NCBI GenBank assembly: GCA_036806345.1
Contig: DAIROT010000004.1
Location: 1 to 53,496, forward strand
Length of the DNA: 53,496 bases
Reading direction: 5' to 3'
DNA from: Acidimicrobiales bacterium
GTDB lineage: Bacteria; Actinomycetota; Acidimicrobiia; Acidimicrobiales; QHCF01
The translations under genes were made by a program, and so were the position numbers. Under the pieces are notes generated by a model. The model did not search any database. It was not told where the DNA came from and saw only the letters and a program-made list of their open reading frames with translations. How positions within the stretch are numbered: the stretch's first letter is position 1; every line of letters begins with the position of its first letter. This document shows, in pieces, positions 3,660-40,924 of the stretch.

Positions 3660-4769
3660 GTGACACATGTTGTCCTCGACACGAGGTCCCTCCGCCAGCA
3701 ACGGGACGGCCTTGCGAACTATATCGAAGAGCTGGTGCCCAGGATCGTGTCGGCAGCGCCAGATCTTGAGTTCACTATCCTTGCGAATCCGTCGCAGATG
3801 ACGTTTTGGACGTCGGCCGCACCAAATAGTCGCGTGCTCCCCTGTGACTGTCGTCCGATGTGGCCAGCGCAACATTGGCGCATCCCCCTCTTACTTCGGC
3901 GCTTGTCCCCTGACCTTTACTTTTACCCCGTTCATGATCCCCCACTTTTCTGCCCTCAACCGTTTATTTTCGTTATACAAGACGTTATCTCGCACGAGAT
4001 TCGTCCATATTATGATAACCTCGACCGTCTAAAGACGGCATATACCCGTGTAGTGACAGCCGCAGGCCTCCGCCGCGCTTCCATGGTCCTTTGCAGTTCA
4101 CATGCAACCAAGACGGCAGTAACCAGTGTTTTTGGGCATCGCTTGGGACACAAACTTCGGGTCGTACCGCTCGGCACCACGCCAAGTCATTCTCGCCTTG
4201 ATGCTCAGATCCTTCCTTCCCATCTTCTCTATGTTGGGACTGATCTACCTCAGAAAAACCTCGATCGCCTAATCAGCGGATACGCTAAGGCACAACGCCA
4301 AGCGAAGGGCCGCTTACCTAACCTCGAACTGGTCGGCGCGCTCCGTCACCAAGCCGACCTCCAAGAGCGCGCCGGGCGCGAAGGAGTCGGTGACAGCGTC
4401 CAGTTTCGAGGCCATGTCTCGCGGCCCGACCTTGAGGCAATGTACCAATCTGCCATCGCGCTCGTGTTCCCCTCCGTGGCTGAGGGGTTTGGTCTACCCA
4501 TCTTGGAGGCCATGAGCCGCTCCGTGGCTGTCGTGACCAGTAACCGATCTGCCTGCGCAGAGGTAGCCGATACCGCCGCGCTTCTGGTCGATCCCTATAG
4601 TACAGATTCCATTGCCAATGGGCTTCTCACGATCTCCACCGACGCCGCTCTCCGCCAAGATCTTGTCAGGCGCGGACACTCCCGAGTGTTGGCATTTTCA
4701 TGGGACCAGTGCGCGGCCACAACGCTCGACGTAATCCGGGAAGCGCTACGAGGAACTGATGGCTGCTAA
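3660..4769 (+). CDS. Glycosyltransferase family 4 (GT-B, retaining)
   Basis: C-terminal EGFGLPILEAMSRSVAVVTSN...LVDP motif (the E-x7-E region of GT4 enzymes). GTG start. Its 3' end overlaps the next gene by 11 nt. Confidence 0.85.
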   Translation: MTHVVLDTRSLRQQRDGLANYIEELVPRIVSAAPDLEFTILANPSQMTFWTSAAPNSRVLPCDCRPMWPAQHWRIPLLLRRLSPDLYFYPVHDPPLFCPQPFIFVIQDVISHEIRPYYDNLDRLKTAYTRVVTAAGLRRASMVLCSSHATKTAVTSVFGHRLGHKLRVVPLGTTPSHSRLDAQILPSHLLYVGTDLPQKNLDRLISGYAKAQRQAKGRLPNLELVGALRHQADLQERAGREGVGDSVQFRGHVSRPDLEAMYQSAIALVFPSVAEGFGLPILEAMSRSVAVVTSNRSACAEVADTAALLVDPYSTDSIANGLLTISTDAALRQDLVRRGHSRVLAFSWDQCAATTLDVIREALRGTDGC

Positions 4770-12564: not shown

Positions 12565-14718
12565 TCAGGTGCCGCGGCCGCTCCGGCCGCTGGGGCGCCT
12601 TGACACCAGCCGAGGACCCGTTCCGACCGGAGGACGCTTGGTCGGTGGGATCGCTGTGCCCCGCCCGGCGGGTGTCCGGCTCGAACCCGCACCGGCCGAT
12701 CCCGCCCCGGCCGATCCCGCCCCGGCCGATCCCGCCCCGGCCGATCCCGCCCCGGCCGCCTGCCTGGTCGCCGTACCGGGGGCCTTGCGGGGGCGCGCCC
12801 CGGTCGCCTTTGATGTCCCGGCTGCACTGGCCTTGGTGGCCCGAGACTTGACTGACGCGGTAGTCCTGGAACCGCTTGGCTTGGTCGCTCGCGGCGCCCT
12901 CGCCTTGGCCGGCTTGGCCCTGGCCTCCTCCTGCGCCCTGACGGGACCGGCGGAGGCTCCGTTGGCTGAGCCGACGATGGTATTGATCCGCTTGAGAACT
13001 GTTGTCCTCGCCGCCCCCGCCTGTTCCCGACTGCGTACGACCTCGAGCTCTTCGGGATCGAGCTGGCGAAGCAGAGGCAGAATCTCGGCGACCCGCAGAT
13101 CGTCGTAGTCGGCAATGGGGAACATGTCGTCGTCCGCGTAGGCCTCGGGACTGGCATCGAACTCAGGGGTGGACATCCCGGAGAGCATCGGCTCGGTGGC
13201 CCGTAGCTCATCCAGCCGCCGAAGTATCGTCGATCGTCCCCGGGTGGCCAACTCTCGCTGACGGACCACGTCGTACTCGTCGGGCACCAGCTCCTCCAAC
13301 AACGGCATTATCTCTGACACCATCAGCTCGTCGTAGTCGGCGATCGGGAAGACGGCGTCGGGGTCGGCATTGGCATACGGCGTCGATGCCCCTTGCGACC
13401 ATGCCTCCTCCTCGGCGGGCCAAGGTGCCTCCTCCTCGGCGGACCTGCGCCTCGAGCCGAAGAACGACCTCCGTACGGGTACCGGCTCGGCCTGCGCCGC
13501 CGGTTGCGGTTGCGGCTCCGACTCGAGCTCCTGCTCGGCTACATCGCTGTCCTCCCACGCGGGTTCCATCGGCTGGGAGATCGCCGGAGGTATGAAGATC
13601 CGACCACGCCGGGAGCCCACTGCCGGGACGACCCCCTCCTGGTCGGCGGTCTCAACCTGGTCGACCTCGTTGCCCCCCCCAGCCTCATCGGCCGCCTTGG
13701 CCTGGTCGGTCGAGTCACGCTGGTCGGCCATATCAGCTCGGGACGGGACCGCGGTTCTGCGCCTCGATCCCAACAGCGACCGGCGCACCGGCTCGCGCAT
13801 CGATTCCTGCCCCGGTCCGGTCTCGACCACCGACTCCGCCTCTACCGCCAGCTCGGCCTCCAATACCGGCTCGGACTCAGGTCCGCTGATGCTGGGTCGG
13901 GCTGAGGTTTCCTCGGCGACGGCCCCGCGCCTTGATCCCAACAGCGACCTTCGCACCGGCACCGTCACCGGCTCCGGCAGTGGCTCAGACTCCGCGTCGG
14001 CCTGGTCGGCCTCGGCTGAGATCTCCTCGGCAACCGTCCTGCGCCTCGATCCCAGCAGGGACCGGCGTGCTGGCACCGGCTCCGGCAGTGGCTCGGACTC
14101 CGCGCCGGCCTGCGCCGGCTCGGGCGGCATCTCCTCGGCCGCGGCCCTCCGCCTCGATCCCAACCGCGACCGGCGCTCCGGCACCGGCTCCGGCAGTGGC
14201 TCGAGCTCCGCAGCGGCCGGGCCCGACTCGGGCCCCCCCTGGTCTGGCGCCCCTCTGCGCCCAGACGCTAGGTACGACCGCCGCACTGGCACCACCGCCG
14301 GCAGCGGTTCCAGCTCGCTCTGCGGTGCCGCCTCTGGGACATCGGGCTCGTCGATCTCGGCGCCCGCCCCGGGCCGCGCCTTGCGTCCGGCGCCACGAAG
14401 GACCCTGGGGGTCCTGCGGCCGGCGGGCGGGCGGACGGCCTCTACCAACTGGGTGGGCCGATTGTCCTCGACCATGTCGGCCTCGGCCACGGTGTCGGTC
14501 TCCGACCCTGCCGTCTCTCGACGTCGCCGTCCCACGGATGGGGCCGTCGCCCCCCGGTCCCGGACCCGATTGAGGGCGGTAAACACGACCAGCAGGACCA
14601 CACAAATCGCGCTGGCCCCGATAGAGACGTAGTCCAGTGCCAGCGAGCGCTCGACGAATCCAACCACCAGGGTGGCGGCGGCAGCCAACAACAGCCCAAT
14701 AGTCAGAATCAGCAACAA
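12565..14718 (-). CDS. Hypothetical membrane-anchored repeat protein (two N-terminal TM helices, six RRSxLGSRRR repeats, two helix-extended-helix-like modules, basic tail)
   Basis: TTG start at 14718, the first start codon after an in-frame TGA. N-terminus LLILTIGLLLAAAATLVVGF...IGASAICVVLLVVF. Internal repeats and the duplicated FPIADYDxLxVxEIxPLL module favour this frame over the antisense shadow ORFs. Confidence 0.7.
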   Translation of the reverse strand: MLLILTIGLLLAAAATLVVGFVERSLALDYVSIGASAICVVLLVVFTALNRVRDRGATAPSVGRRRRETAGSETDTVAEADMVEDNRPTQLVEAVRPPAGRRTPRVLRGAGRKARPGAGAEIDEPDVPEAAPQSELEPLPAVVPVRRSYLASGRRGAPDQGGPESGPAAAELEPLPEPVPERRSRLGSRRRAAAEEMPPEPAQAGAESEPLPEPVPARRSLLGSRRRTVAEEISAEADQADAESEPLPEPVTVPVRRSLLGSRRGAVAEETSARPSISGPESEPVLEAELAVEAESVVETGPGQESMREPVRRSLLGSRRRTAVPSRADMADQRDSTDQAKAADEAGGGNEVDQVETADQEGVVPAVGSRRGRIFIPPAISQPMEPAWEDSDVAEQELESEPQPQPAAQAEPVPVRRSFFGSRRRSAEEEAPWPAEEEAWSQGASTPYANADPDAVFPIADYDELMVSEIMPLLEELVPDEYDVVRQRELATRGRSTILRRLDELRATEPMLSGMSTPEFDASPEAYADDDMFPIADYDDLRVAEILPLLRQLDPEELEVVRSREQAGAARTTVLKRINTIVGSANGASAGPVRAQEEARAKPAKARAPRATKPSGSRTTASVKSRATKASAAGTSKATGARPRKAPGTATRQAAGAGSAGAGSAGAGSAGAGSAGAGSSRTPAGRGTAIPPTKRPPVGTGPRLVSRRPSGRSGRGT
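12686..12760 (-). repeat. 15-bp perfect tandem repeat (ccggccgatcccgcc, about 4.6 copies) encoding (AGSAG)n in the tail of the 717-aa protein
   Basis: Read directly: units at 12692-12706, 12707-12721, 12722-12736 and 12737-12751, plus partial flanks. In frame (15 = 5 codons). Confidence 0.95.
13440..14316 (-). repeat. Degenerate coding repeat array (period about 108 nt) giving six P-[VAE]-RRS-x-[LF]-[GA]-S-x-RR motifs
   Basis: Motifs at residues 146, 182, 218, 256, 312 and 416 of the 717-aa protein. At DNA level, ctcgatcccaacagcgaccggcgcaccgg...ccggctccggcagtggctc recurs between about 13760 and 14210. Confidence 0.85.
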
Positions 14719-14848: not shown

Positions 14849-15532
14849 TCAGATGGAGCTTGACCGGTCCGCATCGGGGCGTTGGGCCGGAGCCGTACCG
14901 GGAGGGGCCGGGCGCGAGTTCGGGTGACGCATGTCGGGCCGCGGCGACAATGAGGGCAGGTTCTCCTCGACCCAGCGCAGGGCCTCGGCAAAGCCGGACT
15001 GCACCCGCGTCCTCTCAGCTACCAGGTAACGCTGGAGGTTGTCCACGTCTTCCTGGAGCGCCGCCCGGGTCCCGACCAGGCGGTCTATGTCGGAGCGCAT
15101 CTCAGTCGTTGCCTCCTCGGTCATCCTGCGAACGTGCTCCTCGGCCTGGGCCACCATGGCCCCGGCGTCAGCCCGTGCCCGGTTCATGGCCTCAGTTGCC
15201 TGTTGGTGAGCCTCACTGACCGCCAGGTCGGCTGTGCGTTGCGCCAGCAGCAGCGTCCGGGTGATGGAATGATCGTCTACCTCGGGCTCGACTGGGCGAG
15301 GAGGCGGCTGGAAGCGTGTATCGGAGAGGCGCGACTGGGCCTGGGACAGCTCGGTCTCGGCCTGGGCCGCCCGGGCGGCCGTCTCCCTTACCCGGTCCTG
15401 CAGCAGCTCGATACCGGCGGCCACTCGCTCGAGGAACTCGTCGACGTCGTCCTTGTTGTAGCCGCGCAGCTCGAGTCGGAACTCGATGTCCCGAAGAGTC
15501 GCCGAAGATACCTCCATAGCCATGACGCTCAT
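14849..15532 (-). CDS. divIVA: DivIVA/Wag31 cell-pole and septum scaffold protein
   Basis: LRDIEFRLELRGYNKDDVDEFLERV N-terminal DivIVA domain followed by coiled coil. The ATG at 15532 is preceded by GGAGATAGG. Confidence 0.85.
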   Translation of the reverse strand: MSVMAMEVSSATLRDIEFRLELRGYNKDDVDEFLERVAAGIELLQDRVRETAARAAQAETELSQAQSRLSDTRFQPPPRPVEPEVDDHSITRTLLLAQRTADLAVSEAHQQATEAMNRARADAGAMVAQAEEHVRRMTEEATTEMRSDIDRLVGTRAALQEDVDNLQRYLVAERTRVQSGFAEALRWVEENLPSLSPRPDMRHPNSRPAPPGTAPAQRPDADRSSSI

Positions 15533-15541
15533 CCTATCTCC

Positions 15542-15598
15542 ACACTGCTCCGCAGGGGCAAAGGCGCTTCGCAACACTGCTCCGCAGAGGCAATTGCG
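15542..15598 (-). repeat. Intergenic repeat, copy 1 (32 nt perfect, 15542-15573) plus adjacent 25-nt diverged copy (15574-15598), upstream of divIVA
   Basis: acactgctccgcaggggcaaaggcgcttcgca is identical to 15875-15906. The neighbouring acactgctccgcagaggcaattgcg matches 22 of 25 positions. Confidence 0.95.
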
Positions 15599-15609
15599 TA
15601 AAACTCATC

Positions 15610-15873
15610 TCAGCGGGCGAACAGGGGGATGAGCACCACCTGGATAACGATCAGGACGATCAGAGGGGACAGGTCGAGGCCGACGCCGCCAACTCCGATG
15701 GGAGGCAGGATCCTGCGTAGTGGAGCCAACACCGGCTCGGTGAGCTTGTTGAGGAGCTGCGCCACCCTGGAAAGCGCCGAGCCTGGCGTCGTCGGAAAAT
15801 AGCTCAGGATGATCCGGGCGAAGATGATGACGACATAGGCCTCCAGCACATAGCGAATGATGTTCGAGATCAA
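15610..15873 (-). CDS. yggT: YggT-family integral membrane protein
   Basis: IIRYVLEAYVVIIFARIILSYFP... YggT signature. The TTG at 15873 lies 7 nt after a GGAG. The ORF-track extension to 16035 overlaps sepF. Confidence 0.8.
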   Translation of the reverse strand: MISNIIRYVLEAYVVIIFARIILSYFPTTPGSALSRVAQLLNKLTEPVLAPLRRILPPIGVGGVGLDLSPLIVLIVIQVVLIPLFAR

Positions 15874-15874
15874 G

Positions 15875-15906
15875 ACACTGCTCCGCAGGGGCAAAGGCGC
15901 TTCGCA
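15875..15906 (-). repeat. Intergenic repeat, copy 2 (32 nt perfect), filling the whole sepF-yggT spacer
   Basis: Identical 32-mer. Read on the coding strand it is TGCGAAGCGCCTTTGCCCCTGCGGAGCAGTGT, followed by cTTG, the yggT start. Confidence 0.95.
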
Positions 15907-15907
15907 C

Positions 15908-16465
15908 TCAAGGTCGGTAAAGGCCCCGTTCCTGGAGGCGTTGACGCTCCTCAGGCGACACCTCGACGTTGGTTGGCGTGAGGAGGAACACGTCCTCGGC
16001 CACCTTGTCCATGGCGCCGCCCAGGGCATAGGCAACTCCGCTGCAGAAGTCGATCATTCGCCGGGCCAGGTCCCTGTCCGCCACCTGGAGGTTGACGATC
16101 ACCGGCTGCTCGATCTTGAGGCGATCCCCGATCTCCTGGGCATCGCCAAACCGCTCGGGTGCGACCACATGAACCCGGGCGCCGCGAGTCGGCACGATCT
16201 GGCGCACCACCGCTCCCCGTGTCGTCATCACCCCGGTAGCCGGTTGATCTTCGCGAGGAAGGGCCCGGATGGGAGTCATGGTCTGCTCCTCCACCGGAGC
16301 CGGGAATCCCTGCACCGATCCGCCCGGGGCCGGCCCGAACGAACGCGCCGCGCCGCGCCCTGCCACCGGCGGCGCGGGCTCTTCGTAGTGCTGGTAGTCG
16401 TCATATTCTTCGTCGTTCATGTCGAGGCCAAGGTAGACCATCGCTCGACGAATGAAAGATGCCAT
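15908..16465 (-). CDS. sepF: Cell division protein SepF
   Basis: N-terminal MASFIRRAMVYLGL membrane-targeting helix and a C-terminal ...PERFGDAQEIGDRLKIEQPVIVNL...RMIDFCSGVAYALGG SepF domain. Confidence 0.9.
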   Translation of the reverse strand: MASFIRRAMVYLGLDMNDEEYDDYQHYEEPAPPVAGRGAARSFGPAPGGSVQGFPAPVEEQTMTPIRALPREDQPATGVMTTRGAVVRQIVPTRGARVHVVAPERFGDAQEIGDRLKIEQPVIVNLQVADRDLARRMIDFCSGVAYALGGAMDKVAEDVFLLTPTNVEVSPEERQRLQERGLYRP

Positions 16466-20355: not shown

Positions 20356-21407
20356 GAGGCTCTCCCCGGCCGAGAACCCGCGCTCGACGCTGCCTCGGTA
20401 CCTGGCTCGGAGAACCCGAGCATGCGAACCTCGGGCACCAGCTCGATGCCCAGCCGCTGGCTCACCAGATGGCGAACCTCCTCGATCAGGGCCCTCACGT
20501 CGTCGGCCCTGCCGTGGGGGTCGGCCTGGATGAAGTTGGCGTGCTTGGTCGAGATCGACGCCGATCCGATCCGGTGGCCCTTGAGGCCGGCGGCCTGTAT
20601 CACCCGGCCCGAGGAGTCGCCGGGCGGGTTGGTGAACACCGAGCCGGCATTCTGGCCACCGGGCTGGTGCTCCCGGCGCCAGCGGACGATGTCGGCGATG
20701 GCCCCCTCCGAGCGCTTCCGGTTGCCGGCGTCCAGGTCCATCTCGACCCAGGTCACCACCTGGCTCGGGATCAGGTTGGAGTGGCGATAGGAGTAGCCAA
20801 GGGCACCGGTTTCCATCACCGTCTCACCAGGTTCATCCGGATCAGCCAGGCTGACCACCCCTGCACGGCTCAGGCACCGCGACATGTCCGACCCGTGGCC
20901 GCCGGCATTCATATGCACCGCCCCGCCCACCAACCCCGGAACGCCCACTGCCCACTCGAAGCCAGCAAGGCCGGCTGCTGCAGTGCGACGGGCCAGCACC
21001 GGCAGGCTGACCGCGCCGCCCGCCCTGACCCGGTGCTCCTGGATCTCGATGCCAGCGAAGGCCGCCCCCAGAGTCACCACCAGGCCAGGGAAGCCGCCGT
21101 CGGCCACCAACAGGTTGGAGCCCCGGCCCAGCACCACCGCCGGTAGCGAGGTGGCCAGCACGGCCCGGCCCACCGCGGCCAGTTGGACGTGGTCGGCCAC
21201 CTCCACGAACAGGGCGGCCGGGCCGCCCACCCGGTAGGTGGTGAGGGGGCCGATGGGCCAGTCCCGCCGGACCAGAGACCCCAGCATGGCCACCGCCTCC
21301 TCGACCTGCTGGGCCGGGACCTGCTGGGCCGGGACCTGCTGGGCCGGGATCTGCTGGCTGCCCCGGGGCAGGCCGTCCGACGGGGGCAGCCCCTGGCGCT
21401 CAGTCAC
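20352..21407 (-). CDS. murB: UDP-N-acetylenolpyruvoylglucosamine reductase MurB
   Basis: PLTTYRVGGPA..., GRGSNLLV and the FAD-binding/MurB C-terminal pattern. The start is ambiguous: GTG at 21407 overlaps the murC stop by 8 nt and translates a (PAQQV)n repeat, while ATG at 21287 gives the canonical core. Confidence 0.85.
   Translation of the reverse strand: MTERQGLPPSDGLPRGSQQIPAQQVPAQQVPAQQVEEAVAMLGSLVRRDWPIGPLTTYRVGGPAALFVEVADHVQLAAVGRAVLATSLPAVVLGRGSNLLVADGGFPGLVVTLGAAFAGIEIQEHRVRAGGAVSLPVLARRTAAAGLAGFEWAVGVPGLVGGAVHMNAGGHGSDMSRCLSRAGVVSLADPDEPGETVMETGALGYSYRHSNLIPSQVVTWVEMDLDAGNRKRSEGAIADIVRWRREHQPGGQNAGSVFTNPPGDSSGRVIQAAGLKGHRIGSASISTKHANFIQADPHGRADDVRALIEEVRHLVSQRLGIELVPEVRMLGFSEPGTEAASSAGSRPGRAS
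21303..21357 (-). repeat. 15-bp tandem repeat (gacctgctgggccgg, 3 perfect copies plus one partial) at the murC-murB junction
   Basis: Units at 21303-21317, 21318-21332 and 21333-21347, then gatctgctgg. It encodes (PAQQV)n if murB starts at 21407. Confidence 0.95.
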
Positions 21408-22803: not shown

Positions 22804-24017
22804 CGCTGCCTCCGGGCGTTGCTCTCGACCAGCTGAGCCACCCGTGCGGCGGCATCGGGTCGGCCCATCCGGCCCGCCGCCCGACCCATCGTGGCCAGAC
22901 GCTCGGGGTCGGCCAGGAGGTCGCCCACCACCTCGGCCAGTCGGGTCGGCGTGCACTGCTCGTCGACCAGCCGCACCGCCCCCCCGGCACTCACCATGGC
23001 CTTGGCGTTGGCTGTCTGATGATCGCCGGGGGCACCCGGGAGAGGTACCAGGACACTGGGCACTCCAGCCACCGCCAGCTCGGCCACCGAGGTGGCCCCC
23101 GCTCGGCACACCACCAGGTCGGCGGCGGCCAGGACACAGTCCATGTGCTCCTCGTACTCCACCCCCTGGTAAACCAGCCCCCCGCCCGGTGCCCTGGGCA
23201 GATCTCGGGCCACTTCGGGCCAGTCCCGCCGGCCGACCACGTGATAGATGGCCAGGTCGCCGCGACCGGCCCAGTCCCGAGCCAGCCCCAGGGCGGCCTG
23301 GTTGATCCGAAGGGCACCCAACGAGCCGCCAAAGACGGCCACCACCATCCTCTCCTCCAGCAGGCCCAGTCGGGCCCGAGCGGCGGCTCGCCCCTCCGAT
23401 GAACGGTCCACCGCCGCCATCTCTGGCCTCACCGGGTTACCGGTCACCACGGCGCGAGGTAGAGCCGTGCCCTCGAAGGCCACCGCGCTGGCCCGAGCCA
23501 GTCGGCCGACCAGGCGGTTGGCCGCCCCCGGCACGGCGTTGGACTCGGCCACCACCAAGGGCACACGTAGGGCCACTGCCGCCAGGGCGCACGGCAGGCC
23601 GGCATAGCCGCCCACCGACAGGACCACGGCCGGGTGGCGCCGGGCCACCAGGCGCAGGGCCATGGCCAGGGCCTGGGCCAGGCCAGCCAGGGCACCCAGG
23701 TTGTCCCGATCGAGGTGGCGGACCAGCCCCCGGCCCGGTAGGAGGGTCACCTCGAAGCCGGCCGCCGGGACCAGGCGGCCCTCGATGCCTCGGCGGGAAC
23801 CGACGAAGTGGATGTTGGACTGCGGATGACCGGCCTCCACCAGGGCGTGGCCCACGGCCAGGGCGGGCAGGACGTGGCCCGCGGTACCGCCCCCGGCCAC
23901 GATGGCAAATGTGGCCGAGTCCCCTCGGTCACTGGCCCCCGTACTCCTGGGGTCACTGGCCCCCGTACCCCTGGGGCGGCCCCAGCCCGAGCGAAGGCGG
24001 CGACAGGCGAGCCTCAT
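22800..24017 (-). CDS. murG: Lipid II synthase MurG (UDP-GlcNAc:lipid I GlcNAc transferase)
   Basis: GGGTAGHVLPALAV G-loop and ...RAGATSVAELAVAGVPSVLVPLP...HQTANA. ATGA overlap with the ftsW stop. It has a roughly 35-aa N-terminal extension containing a 24-bp tandem duplication. Confidence 0.9.
   Translation of the reverse strand: MRLACRRLRSGWGRPRGTGASDPRSTGASDRGDSATFAIVAGGGTAGHVLPALAVGHALVEAGHPQSNIHFVGSRRGIEGRLVPAAGFEVTLLPGRGLVRHLDRDNLGALAGLAQALAMALRLVARRHPAVVLSVGGYAGLPCALAAVALRVPLVVAESNAVPGAANRLVGRLARASAVAFEGTALPRAVVTGNPVRPEMAAVDRSSEGRAAARARLGLLEERMVVAVFGGSLGALRINQAALGLARDWAGRGDLAIYHVVGRRDWPEVARDLPRAPGGGLVYQGVEYEEHMDCVLAAADLVVCRAGATSVAELAVAGVPSVLVPLPGAPGDHQTANAKAMVSAGGAVRLVDEQCTPTRLAEVVGDLLADPERLATMGRAAGRMGRPDAAARVAQLVESNARRQR
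23929..23976 (-). repeat. 24-bp tandem duplication in the murG 5' end
   Basis: tcactggcccccgtac[t/c]cctgggg twice (23929-23952 and 23953-23976, 1 mismatch). It encodes PRGTGASD/PRSTGASD. Confidence 0.95.
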
Positions 24018-25261
24018 CGGCGGGCCGCTCGCAGGGTCCTGGCCGCCCCCGTGCGCTGGCCAGCACTCCGAGGTTGGCCAGCACTCCGAGGTTGGCCAGC
24101 ACTCCGAGGTTGGCCAGCACGACGAGGCTGCGCGGCCACGTTGAGCAGCACGCCGGTGGCAGCCATGAGGATGGCGAGCGAGGACCCGCCGTAGGACACA
24201 AAAGGAAGCGGTACGCCCGTGACCGGTAGGGCCCCCACCACCGCTCCGATGTTGATCACCGCCTGGCCGACGATCCAGCAGGTGATGCCGGCCGCCATCA
24301 GAGCCCCGAACCGGTCAGGGGCCCGACCCGCAATACGGATGCCCAGCACGGCCAGGGCCACGAACAGGCCCACCACCAGCACCGCCCCGATCAGGCCCAG
24401 CTCCTCGCCGATGATGGCGAAGATGAAGTCGGTGTAGGCGTTGGGCAAGAAGCCCCACTTGGCTCGGCTGGCGCCCAGGCCCACCCCGAACAAGTGCCCC
24501 GACGTCAAGCCCACCAGCGACTGGACCACCTGGTAGCCGGAGTTGGAGGCGTGGGCCAAGGGGTTGGTGAACGACAGCAACCGAGCCCGCTGATAGGGCT
24601 TCATCGCACTGGAGATGACGGCCCCCCCCACCAGGAGAGCCACCACGCCGGACATGGTGGCCAGGCGGGTGCCGGCGCACCACAGCAGCCCCAGGGTGAT
24701 GCAGGCCAGCACCAGGGTGGTGCCCAGGTCGGGCTGGGTGAAGATCAGGGCGCCGGCCAGGCCGAAGACGACCAGGATCGGTCGCAGGGTGACCCGCCAG
24801 TCGCCCATTCGGTCGGCCCGGCGAGCCAGCAGGTCGGCCCCGAACAACACCATGGCCAGCTTGGTCAGCTCGGAGGGCTGGATGCGCAGCGAGCCGGCGC
24901 CCAGCCATCGGCTGGATCCCCCCACCGTCACCCCGAACCCGGGCACCAGGATCAGGACCAGCAGGAACAGGCAGGCCACCATGAACCACCTGCTCCATCG
25001 CCGCCAGGACCGGTAGTCGACCCGTATGGTGATGGCCATGGCGATGCCGCCGACAGCCAGCCACTGGACCTGGCGCACGAAGAAATACCACGACGAGCCG
25101 TGCACCCGCAGGGACTCGACCGACGAGGCAGACAGCACCATCACCAGGCCGATCACGTTGAGGATCACGACCAGGGCCAGCAACCCGACGAAGACAGCCG
25201 GCTTTTGTGGGCCCGGCGGCTTGGCCGGGACGCTCGAGCGCCGGGACAACAGGGCTCTCAA
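24014..25261 (-). CDS. ftsW: SEDS-family peptidoglycan polymerase FtsW
   Basis: Polytopic FtsW/RodA pattern (...FTQPDLGTTLV..., ...TDFIFAIIGEELGLIG..., ...LPVTGVPLPFVSYGGSS). The TTG at 25261 forms a TTGA overlap with the murD stop. Confidence 0.9.
   Translation of the reverse strand: MRALLSRRSSVPAKPPGPQKPAVFVGLLALVVILNVIGLVMVLSASSVESLRVHGSSWYFFVRQVQWLAVGGIAMAITIRVDYRSWRRWSRWFMVACLFLLVLILVPGFGVTVGGSSRWLGAGSLRIQPSELTKLAMVLFGADLLARRADRMGDWRVTLRPILVVFGLAGALIFTQPDLGTTLVLACITLGLLWCAGTRLATMSGVVALLVGGAVISSAMKPYQRARLLSFTNPLAHASNSGYQVVQSLVGLTSGHLFGVGLGASRAKWGFLPNAYTDFIFAIIGEELGLIGAVLVVGLFVALAVLGIRIAGRAPDRFGALMAAGITCWIVGQAVINIGAVVGALPVTGVPLPFVSYGGSSLAILMAATGVLLNVAAQPRRAGQPRSAGQPRSAGQPRSAGQRTGAARTLRAARR
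24058..24129 (-). repeat. 18-bp tandem repeat (ggccagcactccgaggtt, 3 perfect copies plus one diverged) in the ftsW 3' end
   Basis: Units at 24058-24075, 24076-24093 and 24094-24111, with a diverged fourth at 24112-24129. It encodes (AGQPRS)n in the cytoplasmic tail. Confidence 0.95.
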
Positions 25262-29185: not shown

Positions 29186-31347
29186 TACGGTCTGCTCCGA
29201 ATCCCTGGTGACCGTCCGAGCGTAGTGCTCGTGGTCGACCCCCCGGTGCTGGGAGTCGAACCGGGAACCGACCTGGAGGCCGAAGCGGTGGTCCGTACCT
29301 GGGAGGCTGGGGTCCGCGACGCGGCCTTGGCCGTGGTGGCTCCCGTGCTGCTGGTGGTCGAGCCGGTGGGTGTGGTCGAGCCAGTGGTAGCTCCGGGGGT
29401 GACGGGGGGCGGGATGACCACCGGCACGGTGACTGGCCCGCTCCCGGGAGCCAGGTCAGGGGGGACGTGGAAGTGGCTCAGGGCGTACCGGCCGATCTCG
29501 GCAAATACCGGTGCCCCCACCGAGCCCCCGTAGATGGGAGTGGGCTGGTCCAACACGACGATGGCCGTCAGCGCTGGCCGCTGGGCCGGTATGAAGCCGA
29601 CGAAGCTGGCCATGTATGCACCTGGCTGGTAGCCAGGCTTTCCCGCGTACGGCTTCTGGGCGGTGCCGGTCTTCCCGGCCACCGCGTAGCCGGGGATGGC
29701 CGCCGCCTTGCCGGTGCCGTCAGCCCCCTGCACCACCTGTTCGAGCATGGGCTTGAGCTGGTTGGCCGTCCGGGCCGAGATCACCCGACGATTGGGTTGA
29801 GCCGGGACGGGATGCTCAGCTCCGCTGGCATCGACGGTGGCATCCACCAGACGGGGTGGGACCATCAATCCACCATTGGCCACCACGTTGTAGGCATCGA
29901 GCATCTGCACGGCGGTGACGGCCTCGTCCTGGCCGATGGGGACTGCGCCAATGGCCGTGCCCGACCAGTGGGCCGGCTTGTCGAGGAAGCCGGCCGACTC
30001 GCCTGGGAAGCCGAGGCCGGTGGGCCGCCCGAAGCCGAAATCCTGCAGGAAGTGGTTGATGCGCTCCTTGCCCAGCATCTTGGCGATGGTGATGGTCCCC
30101 ACGTTGGAGGAGCGAGCCAGGATGTCGCTCACCGACAGATCAGTCGTCGGGTGGGCTTCGGCGTCGTGGAAGGTGGCGTCGGCCACCTGGAGCTGGTCGG
30201 GCACCACCAGGCGCTGAGATGGGGTCACGACATGGTCCTGCAGAGCACCGCCGATGGTGGCGACCTTGGCCGTCGACCCCGGCTCGAAGACCTCGTTGAG
30301 GGCAAGGTTGGACGGGGCCGGGATCGGAGCCCCAGTGGGCTGATTGGGCGACCGAGCAAGGTTGGCCATGGCCAGGATGTCGCCATTGCGAGAGTCCATG
30401 ACCACGGCCATGCCGGCCTGGGCCTTGCTGGTCACCACCTCGTTGGAGAGGGCTTGGCGGACCTCGATCTGCAGGGGGGTGTCGAGGGTGAGCACCAACC
30501 CTCGGCCGGGCTGGGCCGCCTGATCGCTGACCACCCCACCGGGGATGTCCCTGCCGTTGGGATCGCGCTGGACCACCATCTGACCCGAGTGGCCGGCCAG
30601 TTGGCGATCGTACTGGTACTCGATACCGCCCTGGCCATGGCCTTCGGTCCCCACCTGGCCGAGTACCGGCACAGCCACATCGCCAGCCAGCAGCTCCCGC
30701 TTGGGCTCCTTCACGAAGCTGATCCCGGTCAGCGCCAGGGCCTTCACCGCGGCCGCGGTGGAATCGTCCACCTGGTGAGCCAGGTAGACGAAGCCCGAGC
30801 CCAGGCTCAGGTCGTGCTGCAAGGTAGCGACGCTCATCTTGAGCACCGGAGCCAAGGCCTTGGCCTCACCCAGCGGATCGTCGATCTGGTGGGGATCGGC
30901 GACCACCGTCTGAAGGGGAACCGACATGGCCAGGACACGACCGTCCCTGTCCAACAGGGGACCCCTCTGGGCTGGCAGGTTCACTGTGTGCAACAGCTCC
31001 GAGCGGCCGACCGCCGCATAGGCCTGATTGTGGAACACCTGGACCCAGGTGAGGCGGCCTATCACCAACACGAACGCTGTCCCCATGACGACCATGAGAG
31101 TGATCAGCCGCCGGGCGGCCTGGCGAGGGGTGGCAGGCGTGGACCTGTAGCTGGCCCTGGGCCTGGTGCCTGCCGCCGGACGGGGCCTGGTGCCTGCCGC
31201 CGGACGGGGCCTGGTGCCTGCCGCCGGACGCCGGCTGAGGCTGCGGCTGGCCGCCCGCCGGAGGGAAGGCCGAGGCACCGGGCCACGGGCGGCGCGGCGG
31301 CGGACCCAGGGGGCCACCCTGGGCGAAGGCCGGGGTGGGCCGGTCAC
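29185..31347 (-). CDS. ftsI: Class B penicillin-binding protein FtsI (septal transpeptidase)
   Basis: TM anchor (LITLMVVMGTAFVLVIG), PBP dimerisation domain, and transpeptidase motifs (STAK-like ...GSTAKV..., SSN, KTGT). The GTG at 31347 forms a GTGA overlap with the ftsL stop. The ORF-track extension to 31857 overlaps ftsL. Confidence 0.9.
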   Translation of the reverse strand: MTGPPRPSPRVAPWVRRRAARGPVPRPSLRRAASRSLSRRPAAGTRPRPAAGTRPRPAAGTRPRASYRSTPATPRQAARRLITLMVVMGTAFVLVIGRLTWVQVFHNQAYAAVGRSELLHTVNLPAQRGPLLDRDGRVLAMSVPLQTVVADPHQIDDPLGEAKALAPVLKMSVATLQHDLSLGSGFVYLAHQVDDSTAAAVKALALTGISFVKEPKRELLAGDVAVPVLGQVGTEGHGQGGIEYQYDRQLAGHSGQMVVQRDPNGRDIPGGVVSDQAAQPGRGLVLTLDTPLQIEVRQALSNEVVTSKAQAGMAVVMDSRNGDILAMANLARSPNQPTGAPIPAPSNLALNEVFEPGSTAKVATIGGALQDHVVTPSQRLVVPDQLQVADATFHDAEAHPTTDLSVSDILARSSNVGTITIAKMLGKERINHFLQDFGFGRPTGLGFPGESAGFLDKPAHWSGTAIGAVPIGQDEAVTAVQMLDAYNVVANGGLMVPPRLVDATVDASGAEHPVPAQPNRRVISARTANQLKPMLEQVVQGADGTGKAAAIPGYAVAGKTGTAQKPYAGKPGYQPGAYMASFVGFIPAQRPALTAIVVLDQPTPIYGGSVGAPVFAEIGRYALSHFHVPPDLAPGSGPVTVPVVIPPPVTPGATTGSTTPTGSTTSSTGATTAKAASRTPASQVRTTASASRSVPGSTPSTGGSTTSTTLGRSPGIRSRP
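31159..31230 (-). repeat. 24-bp perfect tandem repeat (3 copies) in the ftsI 5' end
   Basis: gggcctggtgcctgccgccggacg at 31159-31182, 31183-31206 and 31207-31230. It encodes (PAAGTRPR)3 in the cytoplasmic N-tail. Confidence 0.95.
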
Positions 31348-37398: not shown

Positions 37399-38640
37399 TT
37401 GCCAACCAAGCGCGGTTGGATGCTGGCCGGCTCCTCGGTGGTCCTGGCCCTGATCGGCCGGCTCCTCGGATTGGTCGAGCTGTATGTGCTGGCCACCGCA
37501 GCCGCGGTGCTGGTGATGGTGGCCGCGGTGTGGGTACGTCGGGGCCGTTGCCAGATGGTCGGCACCCGTTCCCTGCACCCGCCACGAGTGCATGCCGGTC
37601 AGCCATGCCGGGTCGAGTTGACGGTGCGCAACCCGTCCGGGCGCCGTTCTCCACTCATGTGGGCCCGTGACCCATTCGATGGTGGCCGCCGATCGGCCCG
37701 TTTCCTGTTGGCCCCGCTCGATCCGGCTGAGGTAGCCAGGGCGGCCTACCGTCTACCCTCGGAGCGCCGGGGCATCTTCACCCTTGGGCCCCTGCAACTC
37801 GAACGCAGAGACCCGTTTGGACTGGCGACCTCCTCCGCCACCGCCGCCGCCCCGACCCGATTCACCGTCTACCCCCAGGTCGACCCGATCACCTGTCCGC
37901 CTCCGGCTCGCGGCGGCCACCAAAGCGGTGCTGGTGACCCCCGTTCCTTTCTCGGCCAGCGCGGCGAGGACTTCTACACCCTTCGTTCCTACGACGAGGG
38001 CGACGACCTGCGCCGGGTGCACTGGCCGGCCACCGCTCGATCCGGCGACCTCCTGATTCGCCAGGAGGAGGCCCTCTGGCAGGGCGGCGTCACAGTGGCC
38101 GTCGACCTACGGCGAACGGTCCAGAGCCCCTCATCACTGGAGCGGGCACTGTCGGCCGCCGCCAGCGTGGTCAGCGCGGCGTCGTTACAGGGTTCTCCCG
38201 TTCGCCTGGTCACCAGCGCTGGGGTCGACTCGGGTACCAGGTCCGGGCCAGGACATCTGGACACCATGTTGACCAGGCTGGCCGAGGCAGCCATCACCCA
38301 GTCAGGCGACCTGGCTCGCACCGTCACCATGCTGGCGGACCAGAGGACCGGGGGATCCCTGGTCGTGGTCACCACCACCTCCGCATCCAGGACCGACCTG
38401 GGGGAGGTGGCCCAGTTGCGGCGGTGGTTCGGACCGATCATCCTGGTGCTCCTCGAAGCGGACGGGGCATCCGGGAAGCGGCTCCCAGAGGCCGCCGGGC
38501 CCGTTCCCGGCGATCTCACGACCGTTCGGGTGAGCACCAAGGTGCCCTTTGCGGTGACCTGGGCTCAGACCGTGAGTCGAAATACCCGCTCAGACCCCCG
38601 GCCTGTCAGGGCCCGGGGCTCGGCCGGGGCCCAGCGGTGA
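37399..38640 (+). CDS. DUF58-domain protein (vWA-like partner of MoxR)
   Basis: ...LRSYDEGDDLRRVHWPATARSGDLLIRQEE... DUF58 signature with N-terminal TM helices. Starts 7 nt after the moxR stop. Confidence 0.85.
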   Translation: MPTKRGWMLAGSSVVLALIGRLLGLVELYVLATAAAVLVMVAAVWVRRGRCQMVGTRSLHPPRVHAGQPCRVELTVRNPSGRRSPLMWARDPFDGGRRSARFLLAPLDPAEVARAAYRLPSERRGIFTLGPLQLERRDPFGLATSSATAAAPTRFTVYPQVDPITCPPPARGGHQSGAGDPRSFLGQRGEDFYTLRSYDEGDDLRRVHWPATARSGDLLIRQEEALWQGGVTVAVDLRRTVQSPSSLERALSAAASVVSAASLQGSPVRLVTSAGVDSGTRSGPGHLDTMLTRLAEAAITQSGDLARTVTMLADQRTGGSLVVVTTTSASRTDLGEVAQLRRWFGPIILVLLEADGASGKRLPEAAGPVPGDLTTVRVSTKVPFAVTWAQTVSRNTRSDPRPVRARGSAGAQR

Positions 38641-38673
38641 GGGCGGAGCATCGTTGCCCCTGCGGAGCAGTGT
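38641..38673 (+). repeat. Intergenic repeat, third locus: 20-nt perfect match to the 3' part of the element (38654-38673), preceded by a 12-nt half copy
   Basis: ttgcccctgcggagcagtgt equals the last 20 nt of the element in gene orientation. Upstream, gcggagcatcgt resembles gcggagcagtgt (10 of 12). It lies between the DUF58 gene and the transglutaminase gene. Confidence 0.85.
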
Positions 38674-40924
38674 TGTGAGGCGGGCCGCGCTGCCGGCCGC
38701 CAGCCTGGCGGTGGTAACGCTGACGGCGGCCGCCGGGATGGGTCGGCTGTTCGCCGGGCTGGCATTCCTCCTGCCCGTGGTGGTCGCCGTCCTCGTCGGC
38801 CATGGGCTGGCCTTTGCCGGGAGGCGCCTGGGCCTGGGCACCACCGCCACCTTCGGCCTGTGCGCACTGGGTGTCACCATGGCGGTGGTTTGGCTGATCT
38901 TGCCCAGCAGCACGGTCGACGGGATCCCCTGGTCAGGTACCGTCCATGCCTTCAGCTCGGCCATCTCCCACGCTCGGATGGATTTTGCCCAGCTGACCGC
39001 TCCCGCCCCCGCCACCAAGGGATTCCTGCTGATTGCCATGTACAGCGTGGGCATGGCCGCGGCCTTGGCCGACTGGGCCGCCTTTCGCACGGGAGGCACT
39101 CTCGAGGCACTCATCCCCTCGTTCACCATCGTGCTGTTCACCGCCGCCCTGGGCCGCTCGGCCGGGCGAGCTCTGGCCATAGCTGGTTACGTGGCTGGCG
39201 TGCTGGTCTTCGTGGTGGTCCACGAAGCCGACAAGGCCGCAGCCACCACTGCGTGGTTTGCCAGTCGGACCAGGTCGGGAGCGGCCACGTTGGCTGGCGG
39301 CGGCCTGGTCCTGGGAGCCACCGCCGTGGTGGCCGCCAGTCTGATCGGCCCCCATCTTCCCGGCGCGGGCGCCGCTCCGGTTGTCAGTCTGCATCACGAC
39401 AATCGGATCCAGCCCAGCCCGCGCATCACCGTCAATCCCCTGGTGGACATCAGGGACCGTCTGGTTCGCCAGTCCAACGTCGAGGTGCTCACGGTCGGGG
39501 CAGCCCGGCCGGCCTACTGGCGGCTCACATCCCTCGACTCCTTCGACGGCAACGTGTGGTCGTCCAGTGACGCCTACCAGTCGGTTACCGGGAGTGCCCT
39601 CCCCGCCGTGCCGACAGGCGCCCCCACCAATCCGGTGGTCCAGAATTTTCACATCTCGAACCTGGACAGCGCATGGTTGCCGGCTGCTTACCAGCCCATT
39701 CAGCTCACCGGCGGCAAGGGAACCAGCTACGACTCCGCATCGGGCAGCGTCATCGGCGCCTCCGCCACCTCCGACGGCCTGAGCTACCAGGTGACGTCAA
39801 GGGTGCCCCAGCTGACCCCCGCGGTCCTGGGCGCCCAGGGAACTGGATCACCGAGCTTCGACTCCGGTCGCTTCCTGGCCCTTCCCTCTGAGGTCCCGAC
39901 TGTGATCGCCAACCTGGCCCGGAGCGCAGTGGCCGGCCAGACGACCGCCTACGGCAAGGCCCTTGCCCTGCAGCGCTTCTTTCGTGGTGGGAACTTCAAG
40001 TACAGCACCGACGTACCACCCGGTCACAGTGACAGCGCGCTGGTCAGCTTCCTCACCCAGACGAGGACGGGCTACTGCGAGCAGTTCGCCGGCGCCTATG
40101 CGGTCATGGCCCGGCTGGTGGGCTTGCCGTCCCGCGTGGCGGTTGGCTTCACACCCGGCGCCCTGGCGGCTGGCGGCCAGTATCACGTGCTGGGTTCAGA
40201 CGCCCATGCCTGGCCCGAGGTGCATATCGGTGGCGCTGGCTGGGTCTCGTTCGAGCCCACGCCTGGCCGGGGCCAACCCGGCACCCAGGCCTACACCGGG
40301 CTCCCACCGGCCCAGGCGGCCACGGCCCCGGCGGCCCCTGCGACCACGGTGGCCAGCCCGGTAGGTCCTGCAGCTGGTACGGCACCGTCATCGCCCCGGG
40401 CCAACCCGGCGACTCATCACCCGCCCATCCGCCATGCCGCCGTTCCCCCTGGCCACCTGGTGGGCCGGCTGCTCAGCGCCCTCGGATGGGTGCTCTTGGT
40501 GGTGTTGGTGGCCGCCGCCATCCCGATGACCAAGCGCCTGAGACGCTGGCACCGCCGGCGTAATGTGGTCAGCGGAGCCGAGCGAGTCCTGGTGGCGTGG
40601 AATGAGGCGGCCGAGGCCCTGACGCTGGCCGGGGCGCCTCGCCGGTCGACCGAGACCTTCGAAGAGCATGCCGTCCGGGCCTCAGCGGTGGGGCGCCTGG
40701 GCTCCGAGCCGTCCCGATCCCTGGTCCTGCTGGCCAGGAGTGCGGGAGCAGCCAGCTATGCCCGTGACATGATGCCAGCTGCTCTGGTCGAGCTCTCGGT
40801 GACCGCTGCCGCTGACGTCGAGAATGCTCTGTGGTCGGCCGCTTCGGTGAGCCAGCGAGTCCGCTGGACACTCAGCGCCCGGCCACTCATAGGTAAGCAC
40901 CTCACGGGTAAGCGGAGGGACTAA
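38654..40924 (+). CDS. Transglutaminase-domain membrane protein (TgpA-like)
   Basis: Polytopic N-terminal region, then the transglutaminase core GYCEQFAG...DAHAWPEV...GWVSFEPTP, then a C-terminal TM. The GTG at 38675, 7 nt after GGAG, is a likely alternative to the TTG at 38654. Confidence 0.85.
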   Translation: MPLRSSVVRRAALPAASLAVVTLTAAAGMGRLFAGLAFLLPVVVAVLVGHGLAFAGRRLGLGTTATFGLCALGVTMAVVWLILPSSTVDGIPWSGTVHAFSSAISHARMDFAQLTAPAPATKGFLLIAMYSVGMAAALADWAAFRTGGTLEALIPSFTIVLFTAALGRSAGRALAIAGYVAGVLVFVVVHEADKAAATTAWFASRTRSGAATLAGGGLVLGATAVVAASLIGPHLPGAGAAPVVSLHHDNRIQPSPRITVNPLVDIRDRLVRQSNVEVLTVGAARPAYWRLTSLDSFDGNVWSSSDAYQSVTGSALPAVPTGAPTNPVVQNFHISNLDSAWLPAAYQPIQLTGGKGTSYDSASGSVIGASATSDGLSYQVTSRVPQLTPAVLGAQGTGSPSFDSGRFLALPSEVPTVIANLARSAVAGQTTAYGKALALQRFFRGGNFKYSTDVPPGHSDSALVSFLTQTRTGYCEQFAGAYAVMARLVGLPSRVAVGFTPGALAAGGQYHVLGSDAHAWPEVHIGGAGWVSFEPTPGRGQPGTQAYTGLPPAQAATAPAAPATTVASPVGPAAGTAPSSPRANPATHHPPIRHAAVPPGHLVGRLLSALGWVLLVVLVAAAIPMTKRLRRWHRRRNVVSGAERVLVAWNEAAEALTLAGAPRRSTETFEEHAVRASAVGRLGSEPSRSLVLLARSAGAASYARDMMPAALVELSVTAAADVENALWSAASVSQRVRWTLSARPLIGKHLTGKRRD

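Follow-up and report, generated by a model that had tools for sequence, protein, structure and literature searches.

The window analysed in this study is a stretch of 53,496 nucleotides from an Acidimicrobiales bacterium, a soil actinobacterium (assembly GCA_036806345.1, contig DAIROT010000004.1), and the subject of this report is a short repeat that occupies two spacers of its division and cell wall (dcw) operon. According to Pfam, sepF (PF04472, 15908-16465), yggT (PF02325, TTG start, 15610-15873) and a divIVA/wag31-like gene (PF05103, 14849-15532) follow one another on the minus strand. The sepF-yggT spacer measures 34 nt (stop codon at 15908-15910, TTG at 15871-15873) and is filled by the element, and the yggT-divIVA spacer measures 77 nt (stop codon at 15610-15612, first divIVA ATG at 15530-15532). 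The 32-mer TGCGAAGCGCCTTTGCCCCTGCGGAGCAGTGT has two copies here, both on the minus strand, at 15875-15906 and 15542-15573, without a mismatch in a search that allowed up to three, and no match occurred in any of 100 dinucleotide-shuffled controls. A diverged third copy lies directly 5′ of the second and agrees with the 32-mer at 22 of the 25 positions of their common part (15574-15605), and a GGAG precedes the yggT TTG by 7 nt. The two exact copies, the diverged third one, the spacer lengths and the placement of the GGAG had been described in an earlier reading of the letters (hereafter the sequence-only reading), and all of its sequence statements hold. Absent from it was a fourth copy, detected via the 14-nt 3′ part of the element (exact match at 38660-38673, plus strand), whose 20-nt core spans 38654-38673. 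In total, the window contains exactly four copies of the invariant 20-nt core, TTGCCCCTGCGGAGCAGTGT, with zero or one mismatch and none with two to five mismatches.

Copy A (15875-15907, minus strand) is a 33-nt unit made of GTGCGAAGCGCCT and the core (15875-15894) at the sepF/yggT junction. It lies between two CTTGA repeats, of which the upstream one (15908-15912) holds the sepF stop TGA and the downstream one (15870-15874) holds the yggT start TTG. Copies B and C are tandem units in the yggT-divIVA spacer, on the same strand. The first, copy B (15574-15606), is a 33-nt unit consisting of GAGTTTTACGCAA and the core variant TTGCCTCTGCGGAGCAGTGT, with one mismatch to the invariant core, and copy C (15541-15573) repeats the last 32 nt of copy A and adds one G (15541). 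The pair is enclosed by GAGAT repeats, upstream at 15607-15611, overlapping the yggT stop TGA, and downstream at 15536-15540, within the native divIVA Shine-Dalgarno (SD) region (GAGATAGG ATG). Copy D (38642-38674, plus strand) is again a 33-nt unit, GGCGGAGCATCG followed by the core and a T, at the junction between a DUF58 gene (PF01882, 37399-38640, plus strand) and a gene for a membrane protein with TgpA_N and transglutaminase-core domains (38675-40924, plus strand). Its GTGAG repeats hold the DUF58 stop TGA (38638-38640) on the upstream side (38637-38641) and, on the downstream side (38675-38679), the probable TgpA-like GTG start (38675-38677), which stands 7 nt past the GGAG.

Filled and empty sites at gene junctions

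Orthologous loci were reached via the SepF protein and are 99.98% (L036, GCA_003244275.1), 89.5% (L040-L043) and 81.4% (L009) identical to the window. In the 89.5% relatives sepF and yggT share a stop/start overlap, ACC-TTGA-TCTCG, at the place where the window reads ACC-CTTGA-[33 nt]-CTTGA-TCTCG. A 7.7-kb contig of run X8, about 99% identical to the window, lacks copy A and retains copies B and C. The difference is a skip of 38 nt (15869 to 15908), also found in X7 contigs, whose joint is ambiguous by 5 letters that fit on either side, and in run X7 filled and empty sepF/yggT alleles occur side by side. The public runs that contain this lineage are metagenomes of soil, rock and sediment. In L040 the first divIVA ATG follows the yggT stop after 8 nt and the called start after 17 nt, compared with GAGAT-[66 nt = B+C]-GAGAT in the window; in L009 one unit lies between GGATG repeats, displaced by a few bases from the window site. 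For copy D, the empty allele CACT-GTGAG-ACGG, a GTGA overlap, is present in L046 and L048. L047 encodes an identical DUF58 protein, has the filled site GTGAG-[33 nt]-GTGAG and is 99.9% identical to the empty-site strains over 4.2 kb outside the 38-nt difference. The stop/start overlap at the empty D site had been predicted from the filled form, and both L046 and L048 matched the prediction. All three window sites are insertions flanked by a 5-bp direct target duplication (CTTGA, GAGAT and GTGAG).

Repeats of 5 nt flank copies A, B+C and D as well as those at L005, L009, L033, L030 and L001. Flanking repeats of at least 5 nt were found for 35% of copies, compared with 18% in controls, and cluster 17-19 nt before the core. 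TGA is contained in four of the eight duplications, against an expectation of 2.6% (P about 3e-5), which suggests a target preference. The stop/start overlaps that were hit are TTGA (copy A), GTGA (copy D and L047), ATGA (L005, antisense) and GTGA (L033, L054 and L068), so that two of the three window targets were 4-nt overlaps of this kind (TTGA of sepF/yggT and GTGA of DUF58/TgpA). Since such a duplication contains NTGA, the upstream gene retains its stop codon and the downstream gene its start codon.

The perfect identity of the two 32-mers is specific to the window strain. In L036 and in runs X2, X3, X4, X7 and X8 the divIVA-side copy reads GCGAAGCACC and not GCGAAGCGCC, the GCACC variant of copy C. 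These strain differences suggest an order of events in which B and C would have been the earliest, C reading GCACC as it does in X8. Copy A would then have arisen as a very recent copy of the unit of its neighbour C, and in the window strain C would finally have become identical to A by conversion or point change. Deletion of yggT by recombination between the 32-mers would leave a 333-nt joint, and none was found in six runs. The repeat also shows in the assemblies themselves, as the k=31 Logan contigs L037-L039 terminate inside copy A. In L009 the sepF-yggT spacer (4170-4205) has no element, but a sequence that takes in the sepF stop is locally duplicated in tandem, CTTGACCTACCGA(G)CTTGACCTACCGA, so this junction was remodelled there in another way.

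A dispersed family and in-gene patches

The genome scan used an exact match to TTGCCNCTGCGGAGCAGTGT in one genome per species and yielded 35 loci; a metagenome scan gave 30 more, and about 42 distinct sites were obtained overall. Most loci were retrieved via an exact core match, gene calls at the loci are approximate and the source genome is incomplete. The core occurs in at least 11 metagenome-assembled genomes (MAGs) of Acidimicrobiales or unclassified Actinomycetota and in five Mycobacteriales/Nakamurella MAGs, and the MAG PQ2_30S_bin_2 has 20 exact cores over nine loci. The other genome-scan matches were one in Pseudomonas and one on a contig binned as an archaeon. In Pseudomonas taeanensis (L006:1180-1199) an FKBP-type isomerase gene has the 20-mer directly in front of its ATG, with GGAG 7 nt from the start. 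This one match is consistent with chance, by which about four matches are expected. Phage and plasmid origins were rejected, as no viral contig carries the core and PLSDB returned just two matches, both weak (E = 0.04). Read depth across a 36-mer of the element is 4-7 times that of the flanks and stems from additional contigs with the genome's own coverage and different flanks; the same genome probably holds several more long-form copies.

Copies are single (a unit of about 33 nt, 32-35) or are arrayed head to tail, one every 32-44 nt, the 20-nt core being constant and the linker of 12-24 nt being specific to the array and nearly identical inside it. Arrays were seen in the window (B+C), L002, L010 and L072 (three units each), L018 (at least seven) and L030 (at least six). 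Runs of N mask the largest of them (L018:5728-5949, L030:6847-6950 and L027 at about 1275-1420), and copy numbers are lower bounds. The 3′ edge of the core is sharp, after CAGTGT. On its 5′ side stands a variable part of 12-14 nt, often GnGCGAAGCnCCn, another class ending in TTCCG; the 3 nt directly before the core follow C-[C/G]-N, a degenerate extension without the fixed motif of a protospacer- or transposon-adjacent motif (PAM or TAM). Copies are sense to the flanking genes in the window, L009, L010, L030 and L033 and, as read by hand, antisense in L002, L005, L018 (after an rplL-like gene), L024, L065 and L072. Between co-directional genes we counted roughly 14 sense and 5-8 antisense sites; these counts are approximate, as automatic strand calls are noisy even with an added GC1 > GC2 criterion, and the key cases were read by hand. 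In contigs of X1, X4, X7 and X8 another locus of the same coverage matches copy D and its flanks (window 38636-38675) at 38 of 40 nt; 4 nt beyond it stands a diverged core in inverted orientation (ACACTGCTGCGCAGGGCCAA), which means that inverted pairs exist too.

The core is also found within genes, namely those of two transposase families and of pyruvate phosphate dikinase (PPDK). In the IS200/IS605 Y1 transposase family (Pfam Y1_Tnp) it occupies at least 6-7 positions, in either orientation and always in frame, without a flanking duplication and with the open reading frame (ORF) otherwise intact (L012, L015, L016, L019, L059, L074 and L028/L029; proteins P0241, P0242, P0246, P0247, P0257, P0263 and P0294). 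Among these patches, VIWCP is replaced by HTAPQGQR (L016, L059, L074, L029), KELG by AHCSAG (L019), RMAA by LCPCGAV (L012, L015, L019), the first His of the HUH motif by NCSAGA (P0294), a stretch near the C-terminus by HCSAGA (P0257) and RYVENQ by HCSAGAT (L059). The RYVENQ region is the site of the catalytic tyrosine in related enzymes. In IS607-type serine recombinase genes (Pfam Resolvase) the core stands in place of RLARFG of the DRLxR motif and of two further stretches, in sense at L003, L031, L032 and L035 and antisense at L008, L021 and L003; the L003 gene has two in-frame patches, and the frame is broken in L008/L021. The HUH, catalytic-tyrosine and DRLxR motifs are thus among the replaced stretches.

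In these transposase genes 12-27 nt are replaced by 20-33 nt, with a length change of +6 or +9 in six of about eight events, and the frame is kept in about seven of eight independent events (P about 0.003, our own binomial calculation against one in three). Conversion of native core-like stretches was considered as the origin of the patches and rejected, as the patched positions are not the best native core matches. In Nakamurella-like genomes the PPDK gene contains the core in frame (…LT-NTAPQGQ-PNNGIP…; L026:2371-2390 and L073:5386-5405), and its 20 nt are identical in the two loci though surrounding synonymous sites differ.

Mechanism and alternative explanations

Taken together, we consider it probable that the element belongs to a dispersed, recently mobile family of micro-repeats and is not a dcw-specific regulator. 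The family is apparently undescribed, and the exact core sequence was not found in the searchable literature. In the mechanism we propose, a unit of about 33 bp inserts with a 5-bp target duplication at gene junctions, and the length of the duplication suggests an integrase or transposase that makes staggered cuts and acts in trans. In four sense copies (A, D, L033 and L066) the GGAG of the core lies 7 nt before the downstream start codon; in L009 the distance is 9 nt. SD-led initiation from this GGAG could replace the translational coupling lost on insertion, which would let insertions persist in an essential operon; judged from the spacing, the element may act as a portable Shine-Dalgarno sequence that makes its insertions tolerable. 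The element itself would be selfish or neutral DNA.

Several observations weigh against this interpretation. Neither a transposase nor terminal inverted repeats nor an autonomous parent came to light, so mobility is deduced from polymorphism and duplications and was not directly observed. Some copies have no flanking duplication (e.g., L053, L066 and L065). The 20-nt core is exact at orthologous sites with 13-20% flank divergence (window/L047, L054/L068 and L026/L073), and pure junk DNA would not be expected to keep an exact core, though retrieval by exact core introduces an ascertainment bias. The in-gene copies replace native sequence without a duplication, so more than one process may spread the core. 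Finally, with the source genome incomplete, neither the copy number nor the fraction of copies at stop/start overlaps is a genome-wide figure.

The sequence-only reading had favored a shared cis-regulatory site of the dcw operon, that is, an RNA operator, a processing site or a target of a small RNA or RNA-binding protein in the yggT and divIVA leaders. Identical sense copies in adjacent spacers of one operon, a GGAG 7 nt before the yggT start and a copy before divIVA in the 81% relative L009 as well would agree with such a site. We nevertheless regard it as very improbable, since both spacers are empty in the closer 89.5% relatives, copy A is missing in a strain of about 99% identity, and the core occurs in unrelated operons, in both orientations and within genes. 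No stretch of the locus varies more in X8 than the element region, with four of five substitutions and the sole indel of 15300-15869 lying in the B/C insert. At the RNA level, no Rfam match was obtained for the whole window at the gathering threshold, and when the unit, the tandem leader and the core were folded on both strands, as RNA and as DNA, no fold was significantly better than shuffles (z -0.07 to -1.99), the element containing only mini-stems of 3-4 bp. The proposed CTGC/GCAG stem showed no compensatory change across copies, the variants CGGC (L018) and CTAC (L072) being uncompensated, and no promoter- or intrinsic-terminator-like sites were found in the spacers. RNA runs containing the locus were searched for and none was found; X2 and X3 behave as DNA. 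What remains of this reading, in altered form, is the recurrence of the GGAG 7 nt before downstream starts in sense copies (9 nt in L009). The fallback offered in the same reading, a small dispersed REP-like element, was essentially right. It had named hundreds of copies, inside genes and on both strands, as the mark of a generic remnant; copies in genes and on both strands were found, at tens and not hundreds per genome. Short-read assemblers do break at the repeat, as an adapter, chimera or collapsed repeat would also make them do, but an artefact of assembly or sequencing has practically no probability left given that the same architecture occurs in independent assemblies and at least eight runs from five studies, that the element is limited to particular taxa and that alleles are cleanly filled or empty with a target duplication.

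Another alternative is a repetitive extragenic palindromic (REP)-like element that an IS200/IS605-type (Y1, HUH) transposase would mobilize on single-stranded DNA, in the manner of REP-associated tyrosine transposase (RAYT) systems. The structures recognized would be two GNA-triloop mini-hairpins, GC-GAA-GC and CTGC-GGA-GCAG, and GNA triloops are stable in single-stranded DNA. The core shares genomes with Y1_Tnp genes and lies within them at several positions, the 3′ boundary of the unit is sharp, copy A is what lies from one CAGTGT boundary to the next, and the right end of the insertion sequence (IS) reads GGGAGCAGTCAA, with GGAGCAGT in common with the core. However, HUH/Y1 transposition proceeds without target duplication, and the intergenic copies are flanked by 5-bp duplications of varying sequence; the predicted hairpins are no more stable than shuffled sequences, arrays are direct and not inverted as in REPIN or bacterial interspersed mosaic elements (BIMEs), no Y1 gene flanked by elements was seen among the loci, and an 8-nt match to an IS end could be chance given the many comparisons made. 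We consider this explanation unlikely, and give the same low weight to one in which the 20-bp core is the recognition site of a DNA-binding protein or of a guide RNA of about 20 nt, kept by selection or by a writing process, with the insertions as a by-product. In two actinobacterial classes the unchanging stretch measures exactly 20 nt, next to a 5′ part and flanks that diverge, the core is exact even at synonymous positions in PPDK (L026 vs L073), the window has no copies of intermediate divergence, and the in-frame patches in two unrelated transposase families lie over catalytic motifs. Set against this are the bias toward exact cores in the retrieval, copies with 1-3 mismatches beside exact ones and a core variant in X8, presence or absence that varies among near-identical strains, occurrence in either orientation and any context, and the fact that no candidate binding protein or guide RNA came to light. 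A somewhat better chance, though still a low one, belongs to the idea of a new class of mobile or "written" DNA, ultra-short and marked by the 20-bp core, with two modes. In one, the 33-bp unit would integrate with a 5-bp duplication, preferably at TGA-containing stop/start overlaps; in the other, the same 20 nt would replace stretches of Y1 and IS607 transposases, in frame and without a duplication. The mechanism could be templated insertion, or a system of the host or of a rival element that disables transposases while the downstream tnpB stays translated. A micro-repeat inserted at gene junctions with a target duplication remains our preferred interpretation.

Comparison with known repeats and further observations

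In its behavior this micro-repeat comes closest to MIRUs, the interspersed repetitive units of mycobacteria, and by this analogy it would be best described as a MIRU-like mobile micro-repeat. MIRUs are described as mobile and as inserting at start codons with a -4 coupling (PMC12548453), and as forming tandem arrays within operons, with tetranucleotide direct repeats and with sites known both filled and empty (Supply et al., 1997, in PMC3184786). Like MIRUs, the element is a short, GC-rich repeat of Actinomycetota without palindromic structure, present in tens of copies per genome; both occupy intercistronic operon spacers, often as head-to-tail arrays, at start codons or stop/start overlaps, and the mobility of both has been deduced from filled versus empty sites with short direct repeats. 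With respect to location, the element has hit TTGA, GTGA, ATGA and GTGA overlaps, and empty alleles are at hand in L040, L046, L048 and the X8 contig. The differences lie in the unit (33 bp here, 32-44 bp in arrays, vs 40-100 bp for MIRUs), in the flanking duplication (5 bp vs 4) and in a small ORF that bridges the flanking stop and start in MIRUs, which are oriented with the operon; no bridging ORF is seen here, the frame opened past the sepF stop extending over 100 codons (ORF 15605-15907), and antisense copies are common. The element is also found in genes, and its hosts are Acidimicrobiia and Nakamurella-like Mycobacteriales. Five family units, on both strands and in tandem form, were locally aligned with MIRU292 (53 bp, PMC7977185), the one MIRU unit compared, and scored 13-19 against a null of 13.5 +/- 2.5, showing no significant similarity. 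Homology to the Mycobacterium avium subsp. paratuberculosis (MAP) tandem repeat MAPK_TR_3 was not convincing, with marginal scores only and GGGCGAAGC in common. We found no report in the literature of the mechanism by which MIRUs move.

REP/BIME elements with their RAYTs are similar in size (21-65 bp), extragenic clustering and genome-wide dispersal, and IS200-like Y1 transposases are present in the same genomes, whereas the element here has no stable palindrome, forms direct and not inverted arrays, and shows target duplications and in-gene copies. At the loci examined, Y1_Tnp genes hold the core inside and not as flanks. In L016, about 120-170 nt past the tnpB stop (plus strand, roughly 2070-2120), an IS605-like right end reads CCCACGGCTTTAGCGTGGGAGCAGTCAA, whose 8-mer is the one in common with the 3′ part of the core; chance is a possible reason for this. 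The 5-bp target-site duplication, the insertion polymorphism among close strains and the lack of coding capacity recall MITEs (miniature transposable elements with inverted repeats), but at 33 bp the element is well under their usual 50-400 bp and forms tandem arrays. It has no terminal inverted repeats, as neither end of the unit (GTGCGAAGC... and ...GCAGTGT) is the inverted form of the other. We found no parent IS whose ends match, and the loci contain no minus-then-plus core pair 0.7-2.5 kb apart. Rickettsia palindromic elements (RPEs) are palindromic insertions of 100-150 bp that lie in frame in genes (PMC3184786). The core resembles them in being in frame in PPDK, Y1 transposase and serine recombinase genes whose ORFs stay open, and differs in that a patch of 20-24 nt replaces 12-27 nt of native sequence, catalytic motifs included. 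A CRISPR array has repeats of 28-37 nt, unique spacers of similar length and usually cas genes; with a period of 32-44 nt, a constant part of 20 nt and linkers of 12-24 nt nearly identical within an array, the present arrays do not fit, and this candidate was rejected.

An eye-catching feature of an essential operon is thus explained as a recent insertion of mobile DNA and not as regulation. A stop/start overlap can absorb such an insertion, with the 5-bp duplication rebuilding both codons and the element supplying a GGAG. If confirmed as undescribed, the family would rank with the smallest target-duplicating elements of bacteria and would represent a second MIRU-like system, unrelated in sequence, in another actinobacterial class. 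Very recent gains and losses among strains of 99-99.9% identity in public metagenomes offer a tractable population in which to hunt for the enzyme, and the in-frame overwriting of transposase catalytic motifs deserves attention in its own right. In practical terms, the repeat breaks short-read assemblies exactly at gene junctions.

Some further features of the window were recorded. In-frame GTG/TTG codons within copy B (15574-15577) would lengthen DivIVA by about 15 residues (MLRSAFAPAEQCGDR…); these starts are probably not used, as relatives without the element begin at the downstream ATG codons. The gene after divIVA (12565-14718, minus strand) encodes a low-complexity protein of 717 aa, with about 2.9 copies of a 108-nt repeat at 13910-14231 (motif EPLPEPVP.RRS.LGSRRR) and a 15-nt repeat at 12676-12758 that encodes (AGSAG)n close to the C-terminus. 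Other tandem repeats of the window, at 24057-24120, 31159-31230, 21303-21357 and 23927-23976 (18, 24, 15 and 24 nt, respectively; 2-4 copies), are perfect or near-perfect and have no sequence relation to the element.

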